IMG/VR virus record: IMGVR_UViG_2778261689_000010
Reading direction: 5' to 3' (one strand)
DNA length: 5,307 nt
Origin: a virus
Taxonomy: Duplodnaviria > Heunggongvirae > Uroviricota > Caudoviricetes
Below, in pieces: positions 370 through 5,307 of this stretch. A model generated the notes under the pieces. The model was not told the DNA's origin, made no database searches, and was given only the letters and a program-made list of their open reading frames with translations. A program made the translations under genes and the position numbers. Position 1 is the stretch's first letter. Every line of letters starts with the position of its first letter.

Positions 370-398
370 TTGAAAACATTCCTAATATTTGACATAAA
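370..398 (+). promoter_or_regulatory. Candidate sigma70 promoter for the YbcV-like gene: -35 TTGAAA (370-375), 17-bp spacer, extended -10 TGaCATAAA (390-398)
   Basis: Hexamer match and spacing read directly from the sequence, about 95 bp upstream of ATG 493. The region is AT-rich, so a chance match is possible. Confidence 0.3.
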
Positions 399-492
399 TC
401 ATCAACAAAACACAAAGAGGTCAGACCAGATTGAAGCGATAAAAACGATAATGCAAACTACGCGCCCTCGTATCACATGGAAGGTTTTACCA

Positions 493-903
493 ATGGCTCA
501 GGTTGCCATTTTTAAAGAAATATTCGATCAAGTGCGAAAAGATTTAAACTGTGAATTGTTTTATTCTGAACTAAAACGTCACAATGTCTCACATTATATT
601 TACTATCTAGCCACAGATAATATTCACATTGTGTTAGAAAACGATAACACCGTGTTAATAAAAGGACTTAAAAAGGTTGTAAATGTTAAATTCTCAAGAA
701 ATACGCATCTTATAGAAACGTCCTATGATAGGTTGAAATCAAGAGAAATCACATTTCAGCAATACAGGGAAAATCTTGCTAAAGCAGGAGTTTTCCGATG
801 GATTACAAATATCCACGAACATAAAAGATATTACTATACCTTTGATAATTCATTACTATTTACTGAGAGCATTCAGAACACTACACAAATCTTTCCACGC
901 TAA
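493..903 (+). CDS. ybcV: DUF1398-like prophage protein, YbcV-like (136 aa)
   Basis: The ORF-track frame 370..903 begins at TTG. The first ATG with a good Shine-Dalgarno (GGAAGG at 479-484, 8-nt spacer) is 493, giving 136 aa ([11 protein letters not shown]...), which matches my recollection of K-12 YbcV. ATG 451 is an alternative start without a Shine-Dalgarno. Stop TAA at 901-903. Confidence 0.7.
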
Positions 904-1193: not shown

Positions 1194-1487
1194 ATGAAAA
1201 AAATGCTACTCGCTACTGCGCTGGCCCTGCTTATTACAGGATGTGCTCAACAGACATTTACTGTTCAAAACAAACAGACAGCAGTAGCACCAAAGGAAAC
1301 CATCACCCATCATTTCTTCGTTTCTGGAATTGGGCAGAAGAAAACTGTCGATGCAGCTAAAATTTGTGGCGGCGCAGAAAATGTTGTTAAAACAGAAACC
1401 CAGCAAACATTCGTAAATGGATTGCTCGGTTTTATTACTTTAGGCATTTATACTCCGCTGGAAGCGCGTGTGTATTGCTCAAAATAA
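1194..1487 (+). CDS. bor: Bor outer-membrane lipoprotein (lambda Bor / Iss family, serum-resistance moron), 97 aa
   Basis: Near-identical to lambda Bor over its full length (MKKMLLATALALLITGCAQQTF...ARVYCS). Signal peptide plus lipobox LITGC. Convergent with Rz, as in lambda. Confidence 0.92.
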   Translation: MKKMLLATALALLITGCAQQTFTVQNKQTAVAPKETITHHFFVSGIGQKKTVDAAKICGGAENVVKTETQQTFVNGLLGFITLGIYTPLEARVYCSK

Positions 1488-1518: not shown

Positions 1519-1980
1519 CTATCTGCACTGCTCATTAATATACTTCTGGGTTCCTTCCAGTTGTTTTTGCATAGTGATCAGCCTCTCTCTGAGGGTGAAA
1601 TAATCCCGTTCAGCGGTGTCTGCCAGTCGGGGGGAGGCTGCATTATCCACGCCGGAGGCCGTGGTGGCTTCACGCACTGACTGACAGACTGCTTTGATGT
1701 GCAACCGACGACGACCAGCGGCAACATCATCACGCAGAGCATCATTTTCAGCTTTCGCATCAGCTAACTCCTTCGTGTATTTTGCATCGAGCGCAGCAAC
1801 ATCACGCTGACGCATCTGCATGTCAGTAATTGCCGCGTTCGCTAGCTTCAGTTCTCTGGCATTTTTGTCGCGCTGGACTTTGTAGGCGATTGCGTTATCA
1901 CGGTAATGATTGACCGCCCATGACAGGCTGACGATGATGCAGATAATCAGAGCGGATATAATCGCGGTTACTCTGCTCAC
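1519..1980 (-). CDS. rzpD: Rz i-spanin (inner-membrane spanin), 153 aa, GTG start
   Basis: Near-identical to lambda Rz ([10 protein letters not shown]...[10 protein letters not shown]): N-terminal TMD followed by coiled-coil. The ORF-track start at 1992 is also GTG. I prefer GTG at 1980-1978 because it aligns with the lambda Rz N-terminus and forms the GTGA overlap with the endolysin stop (1979-1977). Confidence 0.88.
1578..1760 (-). CDS. rzoD: Rz1 o-spanin lipoprotein (60 aa), embedded in the +1 frame inside Rz
   Basis: ATG at 1760-1758. Translation [22 protein letters not shown]...[29 protein letters not shown] is near-identical to lambda Rz1. Lipobox VVGC and proline-rich periplasmic segment. 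Fully nested in Rz in a different frame. Confidence 0.88.
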
Positions 1981-2360
1981 TGTTGCCCCCACAAACAGAC
2001 TTCACGCTCAATCTCACGACGAGTCATCAGGCCTTTCCATTGCTTACCGCCAGCGTATGTCCAGCGACGCAGCTGATCACATGCGACTTTGATATACGGG
2101 TTAATTTGTCTGGCGACAGTGGCAAGGTCTTTATTCAAGAGTGCTTTGCATTCTGCTTTGGTATACGTTTTACCGAGCATGATGTCTTTTCCGGTGTGTC
2201 CGTGACATACAGTCCATACACCAACAATATCTTTGTATGGTATGTAGCTGACACCTTCCAGACCATCGTTACCACTTGGGCCAGTGATTAACACTGATGC
2301 TATAGCAATTGCTCCGCCACCAATAGCAGCAGCAACGGCTTTTCGTAATGATGGAGGCAT
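1977..2360 (-). CDS. rrrD: SAR endolysin (phage 21 R / RrrD family, T4-lysozyme fold), 127 aa; internally shortened and probably defective
   Basis: ATG at 2360-2358 overlaps the holin stop (TAATG). N-terminal signal-anchor-release segment [20 protein letters not shown]. Catalytic triad at E35, D44, T50. C-terminus ...[28 protein letters not shown]. Stop TGA at 1979-1977 overlaps the Rz GTG. The conserved central block of the lysozyme fold is absent between ...NPYIKV and ACDQLRRW. Confidence 0.85.
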
Positions 2361-2575
2361 TATTCACCTCTCGCAGCCTTGCGCTTATCTTCTTTAATCT
2401 TGAAATAAAGGTTTGTCAGGTACGTCAGCAGGCCAAATACCAGGCTACCCAGCACACCTATTGCTGCCCACTGTGAGGGAGTGACTTTATCTAGCAGCTG
2501 TAAAAACCAGTACCCGGCACTACCTGCTGAGGTGCCATAGGCGACACCCGTTGTTAACTTATCCATGGATTTCAT
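2360..2575 (-). CDS. essD: Class II pinholin S (phage 21 S21-type), 71 aa, with dual-start motif (Met1 antiholin / Met4 holin)
   Basis: ATG at 2575-2573 with GAGGTG Shine-Dalgarno upstream. Second in-frame ATG at codon 4 (2566-2564), giving the MKSM dual start. Two TMDs and a charged C-terminal tail [13 protein letters not shown]. Stop TAA at 2362-2360. Sequence matches phage 21 S / K-12 EssD from memory. Confidence 0.9.
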
Positions 2576-2685: not shown

Positions 2686-2720
2686 TCAAAAAATGGAAAA
2701 ACCCGCTCGACGGCGGGTTT
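2686..2720 (-). terminator. Candidate intrinsic terminator on the minus strand (possible tR' of the late operon), 124 nt upstream of the holin start
   Basis: Minus-strand reading: AAACCCGC-cgtcga-GCGGGTTT followed by TTCCATTTTTT. The GC-rich core stem is only 5-6 bp, so strength is uncertain. No comparable T-tract on the plus strand. Confidence 0.45.
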
Positions 2721-2725
2721 AAGCT

Positions 2726-3147
2726 GTGTGACGAAGTAACCACTCTTAACAGCATAACCAATTTTTTACGTACGTAAACCACTAAATGATATTTGAGAGA
2801 ATGCTACCGAGTATTGAAAACACCACTACAAATACATAAGCAAATCTCAACAAATAACCAAAAAATAATTTCCAGTGTTATTTTTAGCCGGTTTAAATTG
2901 AACCTTCAAATTATAGAGCACTTATAAATAACAGCCGTTAATATAAATTGGCTAATAGATTTATTTTTATTCAGCCAAGAGCCATGAATAGGATTCGATA
3001 GAAAAAAGTTCAGATAAAAATAGAGATCTACTTCACAAATCAAACGAGAAACCAAAACTTACATCTTGAAATAATCACATTGATTAGATGAATATTTATC
3101 GCGCAGTGACATCATTTTTTAATAATAGTTCAAAAAAAGGGCTCACG
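2726..3147. promoter_or_regulatory. AT-rich divergent control region between holin (minus) and porin (plus); must contain the porin promoter and may contain the Q-dependent late promoter pR'
   Basis: About 420 bp of strongly AT-rich non-coding DNA with many -10-like hexamers, for example a perfect TATAAT on the minus strand (revcomp of 2910-2915) and TTGAAA at 3066-3071 on the plus strand. No -35/-10 pair with good spacing could be fixed by eye. Confidence 0.4.
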
Positions 3148-4245
3148 ATGAAAAAATTAACAGTGGCAATTTCTGCTGTAGCTGCATCAGTACTAATGGC
3201 GATGTCTGCTCAGGCAGCTGAAATTTATAATAAAGACAGTAACAAGCTGGATCTGTACGGGAAAGTTAATGCTAAGCACTACTTCTCCTCTAATGATGCA
3301 GATGATGGTGATACTACTTATGCCCGTCTTGGCTTCAAAGGTGAAACCCAAATCAACGATCAACTGACTGGTTTCGGTCAGTGGGAATATGAATTCAAAG
3401 GCAACCGCGCTGAATCTCAAGGTTCCTCCAAAGATAAAACCCGTCTTGCCTTCGCTGGCCTGAAATTCGGTGACTACGGCTCCATCGATTACGGCCGTAA
3501 CTACGGTGTAGCATACGACATCGGTGCGTGGACTGACGTCCTGCCAGAATTCGGTGGTGACACTTGGACTCAAACCGACGTGTTCATGACTCAACGTGCA
3601 ACTGGTGTTGCAACCTATCGTAACAACGACTTCTTTGGTCTGGTTGATGGTCTGAACTTTGCTGCTCAGTACCAAGGCAAAAACGATCGTAGCGATTTCG
3701 ATAACTACACTGAAGGTAACGGTGATGGCTTCGGTTTCTCTGCTACCTATGAATACGAAGGATTCGGTATCGGTGCAACTTATGCGAAATCTGATCGTAC
3801 CGACACTCAAGTTAATGCAGGGAAAGTTCTTCCTGAAGTATTTGCTTCCGGTAAAAATGCAGAAGTTTGGGCCGCAGGTCTGAAATATGACGCTAACAAC
3901 ATTTACCTGGCCACTACCTATTCTGAAACCCAGAATATGACTGTATTTGCTGATCACTTCGTTGCTAATAAAGCCCAAAACTTCGAAGCTGTTGCACAAT
4001 ATCAGTTCGATTTCGGTCTGCGTCCGTCCGTTGCTTACCTGCAATCTAAAGGTAAGGATCTTGGAGTATGGGGCGATCAGGACTTAGTCAAATATGTTGA
4101 TGTAGGTGCAACCTATTACTTCAACAAAAATATGTCTACTTTCGTTGATTACAAAATCAACCTGCTTGACAAAAATGACTTCACTAAAGCACTCGGTGTA
4201 AGCACTGATGACATCGTTGCTGTAGGTCTGGTTTACCAGTTCTAA
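3148..4245 (+). CDS. nmpC: General diffusion porin of the OmpC/OmpF family, prophage-encoded (NmpC / Lc / OmpD-like), 365 aa precursor
   Basis: ATG at 3148 with AAAAGG Shine-Dalgarno region. Signal peptide [23 protein letters not shown], with cleavage before AEIYNKD. Porin hallmark L3-loop motif PEFGGD. Alternating beta-strand pattern and C-terminal ...VYQF with terminal Phe. Uninterrupted reading frame to TAA at 4243-4245. The ORF-track start at 3088 is an unsupported in-frame extension. Confidence 0.93.
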
Positions 4246-4383: not shown

Positions 4384-4410
4384 GGGGCGTCTCAACGCCC
4401 CATTTTTAAT
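4384..4410 (+). terminator. Rho-independent terminator on the plus strand (porin transcript)
   Basis: GGGGCGT-ctca-ACGCCCC: 7-bp GC-rich stem (4384-4390 / 4395-4401) followed by ATTTTTAATAATTTTT. The minus-strand reading has an A-rich tail, so it is unidirectional. Confidence 0.7.
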
Positions 4411-4434: not shown

Positions 4435-4818
4435 TTAATTAGAGTTATTAACAACGATATCCATCTCTAACCGGATATCTAATGCCATTAACATCCCTTC
4501 AATTATGCCCTCAGCCTTCTGTAACCTTTTCCCGATATAACCATCAGAGCAGCAATGCTTACCTGCCAGTGACATGAATGTCATACCGACTACATAATAA
4601 TCTACTAATAAATCGTGCAAATCGCTGTTGTTCTTTTTCAGACGGGCCATGCACCCGCAAATGATCATCGCGTCATCGTCACAACATTGCGGGCGAGATT
4701 TTACTTTTGAAGTAATTAATCCCTTAAAACCGGCGGCAATGGACGACCAGGTCACATCTTCATGATTATTAGCCGCCCACGCTCCCCAACGCTCAAGAAC
4801 CATCTGAATATCACGCAT
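4435..4818 (-). CDS. quuD: Late-gene antiterminator Q (phage 21/82-type, QuuD-like), 127 aa
   Basis: ATG at 4818-4816 preceded by GGAG Shine-Dalgarno (GGAGTAAGTTGATG). The ORF-track start at 4833 is a TTG with no Shine-Dalgarno. Cys-rich putative zinc-binding motifs ([19 protein letters not shown]). Stop TAA at 4437-4435. Gene order rusA-ylcG-Q is typical of this prophage family. Confidence 0.85.
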
Positions 4819-4903
4819 CAACTTACTCCACAAAAATCAGACCAGAACGCCAATTACAAGCAAAAATCAACAAAACAGTATTAGTTGATTGTTATCTCTG
4901 ACT

Positions 4904-5041
4904 TCATACTCCTGCTCCTGTCAGGGTTTTGGCGTAATTCTTCAGTATTCGGTAATCGGTCAAAACAGAACCGGGGAAACGATATAAGCGCAGACGCCCC
5001 CAGCGGTGGCGAAGAAGTTCTGCCATATTAAACTCAAACAT
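4904..5041 (-). CDS. ylcG: Small protein YlcG-like (45 aa), not in the supplied ORF track
   Basis: Translated by hand from the minus strand: ATG at 5041-5039 overlaps the rusA stop (TGATG). [45 protein letters not shown], stop TGA at 4906-4904. Matches my recollection of K-12 YlcG and its position between rusA and Q. Confidence 0.6.
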   Translation of the reverse strand: MFEFNMAELLRHRWGRLRLYRFPGSVLTDYRILKNYAKTLTGAGV

Positions 5042-5307
5042 CATTCATTCCCCATTTCGGTGATGGTCAGTTCCAGCCTCCCACCTTTGGTAACAGGCAT
5101 CTTCACAACGCGGTAATCAACGACCTGAGCATCATCCAGCCAGAAACCTGCTTTAGTGAGTGCGTCAAAAGCGGCTTTTTGCAGATTATCCAGGTCACGG
5201 CGACGGCGATCCGGCATGTGGCACTCAATGCGGATTTTCACAGGCATAGCCAGGCCGATATCCAGCATTGCGTTTTTAATGATTCGGGCGACGTTATCGC
5301 GGTATGC
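5041..5307 (-). CDS. rusA: RusA Holliday-junction resolvase, C-terminal about 88 codons (5' end lies beyond the window edge)
   Basis: Minus-strand frame open from the window edge to stop TGA at 5043-5041. The ORF-track product ...[75 protein letters not shown] matches the RusA C-terminus, including the acidic catalytic region. Confidence 0.85.

Follow-up and report, generated by a model that had tools for sequence, protein, structure and literature searches.

In lysis systems that pair a pinholin with a signal-anchor-release (SAR) endolysin, the endolysin is exported by Sec, stays tethered to the membrane by its SAR helix and is released when the pinholin depolarises the membrane (PMC6116005). 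For R21, the endolysin of phage 21, work cited in the same article describes how the SAR helix refolds into the enzyme body after release from the membrane, which yields the active form. Escherichia coli's defective lambdoid prophage DLP12 carries an endolysin gene of this kind, rrrD (ybcS). The gene, the structure of its protein, its regulation and the surrounding prophage are already well characterised. Here we describe an allele of rrrD found in a stretch of 5,307 nucleotides (the window) from IMG/VR virus record IMGVR_UViG_2778261689_000010, which is part of DLP12. This allele has an in-frame deletion of 114 bp that takes away part of the core of the enzyme. We consider it very probable that the deletion was spontaneous, that it arose by slippage between two short direct repeats and inactivated the enzyme, and that it is a case of ordinary prophage decay.

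Endolysins that resemble T4 lysozyme (T4L) have three parts, namely a catalytic loop region, a connector helix and a bundle of C-terminal helices; the cleft that binds peptidoglycan lies between the loop and the bundle (PMC8228626). Within this family Gly107 of T4L is conserved, and Met102 is a core residue (PMC8228626). The catalytic motif has been defined as E-X8-D-X5-T (PMC9239132) and as Glu-x8-Asp/Cys-x5-Thr (PMC8228626), and E35, D44 and T50 are tabulated as the catalytic triad of the endolysins of both P21 (3HDE) and DLP12 (4ZPU) (PMC8228626, Table 3). In K-12 the DLP12 lysis module is transcribed and affects outer membrane vesicle (OMV) production and the release of peptidoglycan, and single and double deletions differ in their effects (PMC7918800). 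Deletion mutants of rrrD/ybcS in K-12 are viable, with altered phenotypes in peptidoglycan and in OMVs or bacterial extracellular vesicles; peptidoglycan content and vesicle production change when the gene is deleted singly or together with its neighbours (PMC7918800, PMC12287860). The module has been proposed to be domesticated for peptidoglycan turnover, biofilm formation and vesicle production (PMC7918800, PMC12287860).

The open reading frame (ORF) of the window allele runs on the minus strand from an ATG at 2360 to a TGA ending at 1977. The two features on which our argument turns are the following.

1977..2360, minus strand: rrrD with the 114-bp deletion, a phage lysozyme of 127 aa (PF00959), annotated in strain L9 as 'lysozyme' WP_072844174.1
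2084..2095, minus strand: the deletion junction, where one hybrid copy of the repeat, ATATCAAAGTCG, is left; the breakpoint may fall anywhere within CG (window 2085-2084)

K-12 rrrD has 498 bp and encodes 165 aa. Pairwise alignments of DNA and protein contain one gap only against the K-12 gene, of exactly 114 nt or 38 codons (residues 93-130), and outside this gap the 127 residues and 384 nucleotides that remain are without exception identical to K-12 rrrD. The product is RrrD residues 1-92, which hold the SAR helix, E35/D44/T50 and the connector helix, joined directly to residues 131-165. The codon junction V92/A93 lies at window 2085/2084. At the nucleotide level the breakpoint is ambiguous over CG, so that the final retained base is 2086, 2085 or 2084. 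Both ends of the gene overlap their neighbours: the stop codon of essD shares one base with the start of rrrD (TAATG, window 2360), and at the other end GTGA (window 1980-1977) contains both the stop of rrrD and the GTG at which rzpD is annotated to start. Because the deletion is in frame, translational coupling to rzpD is kept.

Much of this had been anticipated in an earlier note made from the letters of the window alone. It had described a 127-aa ORF intact at both ends, with a SAR anchor, the triad of phage 21 R, a conserved C-terminal segment, overlaps with the holin stop and the Rz start, and a junction at nt 2084/2085, and our comparisons bear out each of these points. Its prediction that roughly 38 codons or about 114 bp were lost was made from a reference length of about 165 aa, and both the length and the loss turn out to be exact. 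The catalytic motif Glu-x8-Asp-x5-Thr is present in the form E35-GVSYIPYK-D44-IVGVW-T50. Residues 1-92 are identical to those of RrrD (4ZPU) and R21 (3HDE) and include an N-terminal, weakly hydrophobic, Gly/Ala-rich transmembrane helix of the kind that stays uncleaved in SAR endolysins. The cognate pinholin gene expected upstream of a SAR endolysin adjoins it as essD.

How did the deletion arise? The earlier note had suggested that microhomology be looked for at the junction, and copies of ATATCAAAG do flank the deleted segment in the full-length gene. This is the only direct repeat of at least 9 bp in K-12 rrrD, and its copies start at gene positions 266 and 380, that is, 114 nt apart. Extended by three bases to ATATCAAAGTCG and ATATCAAAGGCG (i.e., ATATCAAAG(T/G)CG), the two copies match at 11 of 12 positions. 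The window allele retains one copy, ATATCAAAGTCG, followed by the sequence that lies 3' of the second parental copy. The remaining copy is a hybrid: its mismatch base comes from the upstream repeat and the crossover falls within the CG that follows. When a deletion of 114 nt is simulated in K-12 rrrD from position 276, 277 or 278, the window allele is reproduced exactly. Hence repeats are found at both ends of the deletion, their spacing equals its length and a single copy is kept, which is the classic pattern of a deletion made when short direct repeats mispair by slippage. In such an event the two ATATCAAAG copies would mispair during replication, one repeat period would be lost and one hybrid copy would be left behind. 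We regard the origin of the deletion as demonstrated, the slippage step itself excepted.

The spacing of the repeats is also a multiple of three (114 = 3 x 38), and therefore the product is necessarily in frame. Preservation of the reading frame thus requires no selective explanation. Repeat-mediated in-frame deletion is a textbook route by which genes of cryptic prophages decay. One could suspect a non-coding RNA or another feature that overlaps the junction. This was rejected on the basis of two scans: the window has no Rfam match at gathering thresholds, and a promoter and terminator scan returned nothing relevant at the deletion junction.

The deleted form is derived. A search of 5.8 billion proteins found 1214 relatives, and among the 120 listed almost all are 165-190 aa long and carry the block; the few shorter ones are mostly partial or come from contigs of very small size. 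Across 29 of the listed proteins, aligned from Escherichia, Salmonella, Citrobacter, Klebsiella, Kluyvera and others, the missing block is mostly invariant or nearly so. Both the lengths of the relatives and the conservation of the block indicate that the 127-aa form is the later state. The earlier note had conceded that its reading would fall if reference proteins were also about 127 aa long or if the block were present in the window; the homologues listed and the alignment to RrrD speak the other way. We therefore reject the idea that 127 aa is the ancestral length or that of a normal short family member, given the lengths of the relatives, the presence of the block in them and the fact that the Pfam model spans it.

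The profile comparison proposed in the earlier note gives a matching picture. Full-length RrrD aligns to PF00959 in a single stretch (residues 34-156, profile 3-125) with 155.2 bits. On the 127-aa protein the match is split in two, the better stretch covering residues 34-95 and profile positions 3-64 of 125 with 81.5 bits, which is above the gathering score of 22.3. As a member of GH24 (PF00959) the remnant thus retains the motif and lacks a contiguous match to the whole profile.

That the helical block missing from residues 93-130 belongs to the conserved lysozyme core, as the earlier note had claimed, is borne out by structure. Structures are available for RrrD itself (4ZPU) and for R21 (3HDE, full length, the active form; 3HDF, truncated, the inactive form). 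In a profile-profile alignment (hhalign) to T4 lysozyme, E35 pairs with E11 and the missing block pairs with T4L residues ~91-129, a range that includes both Gly107 and Met102. We also made a full-length AlphaFold model on the homologue P0004, which is 98% identical to K-12 RrrD; this model superposes on 4ZPU with a template modelling (TM) score of 0.86. Its helices comprise 68-89 (the connector), 96-109, 111-115, 118-124, 128-137 and 152-160, and confidence in the model is highest over residues 71-130, the block among them. N-terminal helices 3-15 and 17-26 are found in the models of both the 127-aa and the full-length protein. Three helices of the C-terminal bundle (96-109, 111-115 and 118-124) are lost with the deletion, as is the first turn of the next one (128-137), so that the complete bundle typical of GH24 is absent from the remnant. 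The lost helices probably make up the hydrophobic core of the C-terminal lobe and wall off the peptidoglycan cleft on one side.

Predicted with an alignment of equal depth, a shallow one of 30 sequences that are 75% identical or more, the remnant reaches a predicted local distance difference test score (pLDDT) of 48.6 and a predicted TM score (pTM) of 0.32, with everything beyond residue 83 below 50, and the full-length homologue reaches 72.6 and 0.73. Loss of function is our best inference from these results taken together: the bundle is lost, the GH24 score is halved and split, and pLDDT and pTM drop. Most likely, then, judging by these models, the 127-aa remnant cannot fold into an active muramidase, and the allele would be a null.

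Could the shortened protein have acquired a function of its own, either as a minimal catalytic lobe, tethered to the membrane, whose muralytic activity is residual or altered, or as a SAR-anchored decoy that acts on the pinholin or on other SAR endolysins? The open frame does retain the SAR domain, the full E-x8-D-x5-T motif and the conserved C-terminal segment, and the NCBI annotation pipeline (PGAP) calls the product a 'lysozyme' and not a pseudogene. Yet three helices and part of a fourth are gone, family-invariant positions among them, and in the matched-alignment prediction pTM is 0.32 and the whole C-terminal part lies below a pLDDT of 50. Among the relatives listed from the 1214 found, no homologue with a similar deleted architecture appears. 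Nor has the allele diverged in sequence in a way that would mark time spent under new constraints. We thus think a new function very unlikely. The earlier note had left room for an 'altered' enzyme, for which we find no support; the matched predictions argue instead that the remnant does not fold like its parent.

If the enzyme is inactive, the consequences for the cassette can be sketched. Sec would still export the remnant, whose SAR helix is unchanged, and it would stay tethered in the inner membrane. The membrane could be depolarised by EssD as before; with the cell wall intact, the spanins could not complete lysis. Expression of rzpD and rzoD should be unaffected by polarity, as the deletion is in frame, and the rrrD allele would effectively be a non-polar null. 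A strain with this allele is expected to resemble a K-12 rrrD/ybcS deletion mutant, with altered peptidoglycan turnover and vesicle production.

Several points count against slippage, loss of function and plain decay and need to be set beside the evidence above. First, about 32% of composition-matched shuffles of the 498-bp gene hold some repeat of at least 9 bp. The existence of the repeat is therefore unremarkable by itself, and what speaks for slippage is that the repeat falls exactly at both breakpoints and that its spacing equals the length of the deletion. Second, the ORF is open, and all three catalytic residues are retained, as is the Arg pair that aligns with the arginine that positions the catalytic Glu. 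With the ORF and the catalytic residues kept, the 127-aa protein may have some residual or altered activity. Third, the AlphaFold alignment was shallow, and AlphaFold confidence is a poor guide to how stable a deletion mutant is, which makes it supporting evidence only. Fourth, the persistence of the allele in many isolates is compatible with neutrality and also with a benefit.

The distribution of the allele is narrow. A megablast search of 5426 complete E. coli genomes finds the entire window at 100% identity in two chromosomes, those of strains L9 (from chicken, China) and EC-07 (from fish meat); against K-12-type DLP12 it is 100% identical once indels are set aside. An 80-nt probe across the junction matches without interruption in these two genomes only (2 of 5426). 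The remaining probe matches listed consist of two pieces that span 194 nt, which means a full-length gene. The exact 127-aa sequence occurs on 59 contigs in a large protein collection, under several NCBI accessions, and no other sequence shares its 90%-identity cluster. In an index of encoding contigs it is found in 92 blocks, and all 24 contigs that were read have the same DLP12 context. Three carrier contigs differ from L9 by one or two single-nucleotide polymorphisms across 11-13 kb. Isolates with the deleted allele come from chicken, fish meat and other sources, and the draft assemblies come from NCBI, ENA and Logan.

These data also bear on the trivial explanation, namely that the short gene is an error of sequencing or assembly such as a collapsed repeat. 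A deletion between two short direct repeats is in principle a place where assemblies go wrong. A repeat of 9 bp is, however, far too short to collapse in a read-based assembly, and the identical allele is present in two complete genomes of different source and in many draft assemblies. An artefact is thus almost inconceivable, and the many independent assemblies that contain the allele led us to reject it. The deleted allele is genuine, has a single origin and is clonally inherited, and it belongs to a rare lineage associated with food animals. A recurrent, homoplasic deletion finds no evidence: the allele has one sequence in its 90% cluster and one context, and occurs in 2 of 5426 complete genomes.

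The same lineage has lost more than part of rrrD. In all carriers, DLP12 ends at a junction between remnants of nohD and envY, in which the remnant of nohD (terminase small subunit) is fused to that of envY (AraC-family): a second, larger deletion that removed the right end of the prophage. This junction lies outside the window, at about 9348-9765 of L001 and ~2.7 kb past that end of the window at which ybcW lies. Judged against the K-12 map, the nohD-envY deletion also removed appY and presumably ompT. Ten of the 5426 complete genomes have the nohD-envY junction, and only two of these ten have the rrrD deletion; at least four others (LD27-1, YZ22MPE54, TUM12357 and A134_1EC) are annotated with full-length rrrD. 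Because the rrrD deletion is nested within genomes that have the junction, it is the later event. The order of decay in this one lineage is thus loss of nohD-envY followed by loss of rrrD, and the latter is most likely ordinary progressive decay of a cryptic prophage. The deletion arose once, recently, in an E. coli sublineage that was already without the nohD-envY end of DLP12, and has been inherited clonally since.

One carrier differs further. In the draft assembly L004 (GCA_024755025.1) an IS1 element (12895-13592) lies beside ybcH, and downstream of it there are genes similar to agaI and phosphotransferase system (PTS) genes where other carriers have nfrA. The IS1 element and the altered neighbours indicate that the lineage with the deletion has diversified further by rearrangements mediated by insertion sequences (ISs).

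One could also argue that the deletion was selected: it would disarm a potentially suicidal endolysin and keep the pinholin, the spanins and translational coupling for the envelope and vesicle physiology of the host. Indeed, the in-frame loss leaves the GTGA coupling to rzpD and all neighbours intact, the allele has been passed on stably (it is on 59 contigs, in 92 blocks, with several isolate sources), and the module is transcribed and influences OMVs and the release of peptidoglycan (PMC7918800). We nevertheless think selection improbable, for the following reasons. First, the allele has one origin, with one sequence in its cluster and one context, and there is no recurrence in 5426 complete genomes. 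Second, its frequency is very low (2/5426). Third, the gene has no other long direct repeats, and a deletion between these two is what one would expect to occur spontaneously; it is necessarily in frame. Fourth, the lineage shows other decay, namely the nohD-envY deletion. Fifth, the allele contains no substitutions on which selection could be tested. The earlier note had spoken of a 'selectively disabled' enzyme. This does not stand, since what we see is a single slippage event of a common type, clonally inherited, without testable substitutions.

A reading that joins both ideas is that the remnant is a retained, tethered SAR protein, selected either because it disarms DLP12 autolysis or because it acts as a decoy or dominant-negative on the activation of SAR endolysins triggered by pinholin. 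We give it a very small chance. If it were true, we would have a natural case in which a bacterium has edited a domesticated phage lysis module and left the envelope and vesicle functions of pinholin and spanins intact. Ordinary decay by repeat slippage remains the explanation we prefer.

The remainder of the window is a lambdoid late-gene region, as identified by a six-frame ORF list and a Pfam scan. Annotated regions provide the gene names ybcW, ybcV, bor, rzpD, lysozyme/rrrD, essD, porin/nmpC, quuD, ylcG and rusA. The features, apart from the two listed above, are:

370-903, plus strand: DUF1398 (ybcV; PF07166)
1194-1487, plus strand: Bor (PF06291)
1519..1980, minus strand (ORF in the Pfam scan 1519-1992): rzpD, inner-membrane spanin (Rz homologue), 153 aa as annotated; PF03245, E = 1e-53; WP_000092242.1, identical to K-12
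1578..1760, minus strand: rzoD, outer-membrane lipoprotein spanin (Rz1 homologue), 60 aa, inside rzpD in another frame; PF06085, E = 4e-20
2360..2575, minus strand: essD, pinholin of the phage 21 type, 71 aa, dual start MKSM; PF04971 'Bacteriophage P21 holin S', E = 2e-35; WP_000839596.1, as in K-12
3088-4245, plus strand: porin nmpC (PF00267)
4435..4818, minus strand (annotated coding sequence of 127 aa and 384 bp; mechanical ORF to 4833): quuD, Q-type antiterminator that controls the lysis cassette; PF06530, E = 4e-53; WP_001204791.1, identical to K-12
5041-5268, minus strand: RusA, in part (PF05866)

The DLP12 lysis module (essD-rrrD-rzpD/rzoD) matches the K-12 locus in gene order and sequence, with 100% identity outside indels. 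EssD, RzpD, Bor, QuuD, YbcV and YbcW have RefSeq protein accessions that are common to L9 and K-12 MG1655, and the coding sequence of rzoD falls within DNA that is 100% identical to K-12-type strains. The earlier note had judged the holin, the spanins and Q to be intact, and the accessions of EssD, RzpD and QuuD together with the identity of the DNA around rzoD agree with this. Its phrase 'an otherwise complete lysis cassette' is right about these neighbours; it does not describe a live phage, as the cassette sits in defective DLP12, whose nohD-to-envY end had already been lost.

Some further observations concern the neighbours. The gene rzoD is unannotated in the RefSeq records of L9 and of the MG1655 used, and it is called in draft assembly L004, which in turn omits rzpD; these differences between rzoD and rzpD calls are an annotation inconsistency only. 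The porin gene nmpC is intact here (window 3088-4245, plus strand), with an annotated coding sequence of 1098 bp (WP_000737280.1). The K-12 copy of nmpC has an IS5 element at its 3' end, and there the annotated porin is shorter. Judged by its sequence, the NmpC porin of this DLP12 copy is potentially functional. It is flanked by quuD on one side and the lysis genes on the other, all of which are encoded on the opposite strand. An intrinsic-terminator-like hairpin is found at 2699-2720 (minus strand), ~125 nt upstream of essD and on the strand of the lysis genes, and is a candidate tR'-type terminator for read-through by QuuD. A second such hairpin is found at 4384-4401 (plus strand), between the end of nmpC and quuD. 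Two mechanical ORFs begin at TTG and exceed the annotated lengths: ybcV with 177 aa (370-903, plus strand) against 136 aa, and quuD with 132 aa (4435-4833, minus strand) against 127 aa.

What does this allele mean? It is a product of ordinary decay in a known gene and is of little importance except for bookkeeping. It does carry a caveat for annotation: WP_072844174.1 is named "lysozyme" in RefSeq though it is without a quarter of the domain, and counts of functional endolysins should leave it out. In addition, L9 and EC-07 provide a natural non-polar knock-out of rrrD in wild isolates, which could be used to test the proposed role of DLP12 outside K-12.

The closest described system is RrrD (YbcS) of K-12 itself (165 aa, 4ZPU). 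The window allele shares with it the locus, the neighbours (essD, rzpD/rzoD, bor and quuD), the SAR domain and the triad, and differs in being without residues 93-130, most of the C-terminal helix bundle. R21 of phage 21 differs from RrrD by 2 residues, and the window likewise has a cognate dual-start pinholin upstream; R21, together with S21, is however full length and belongs to a viable phage, whereas the enzyme of the window is internally deleted and its prophage is defective. With T4 lysozyme, the archetype of GH24, the allele shares the fold family and the motif (E11/D20/T26, corresponding to E35/D44/T50). The region equivalent to T4L ~91-129, with the C-terminal core helices and L99, M102 and G107, is absent from it. 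Finally, the deletion has the same repeat layout as other deletions between short direct repeats in bacteria (slipped-strand, RecA-independent), and nothing about it is unusual, the hybrid copy being the one detail to note.

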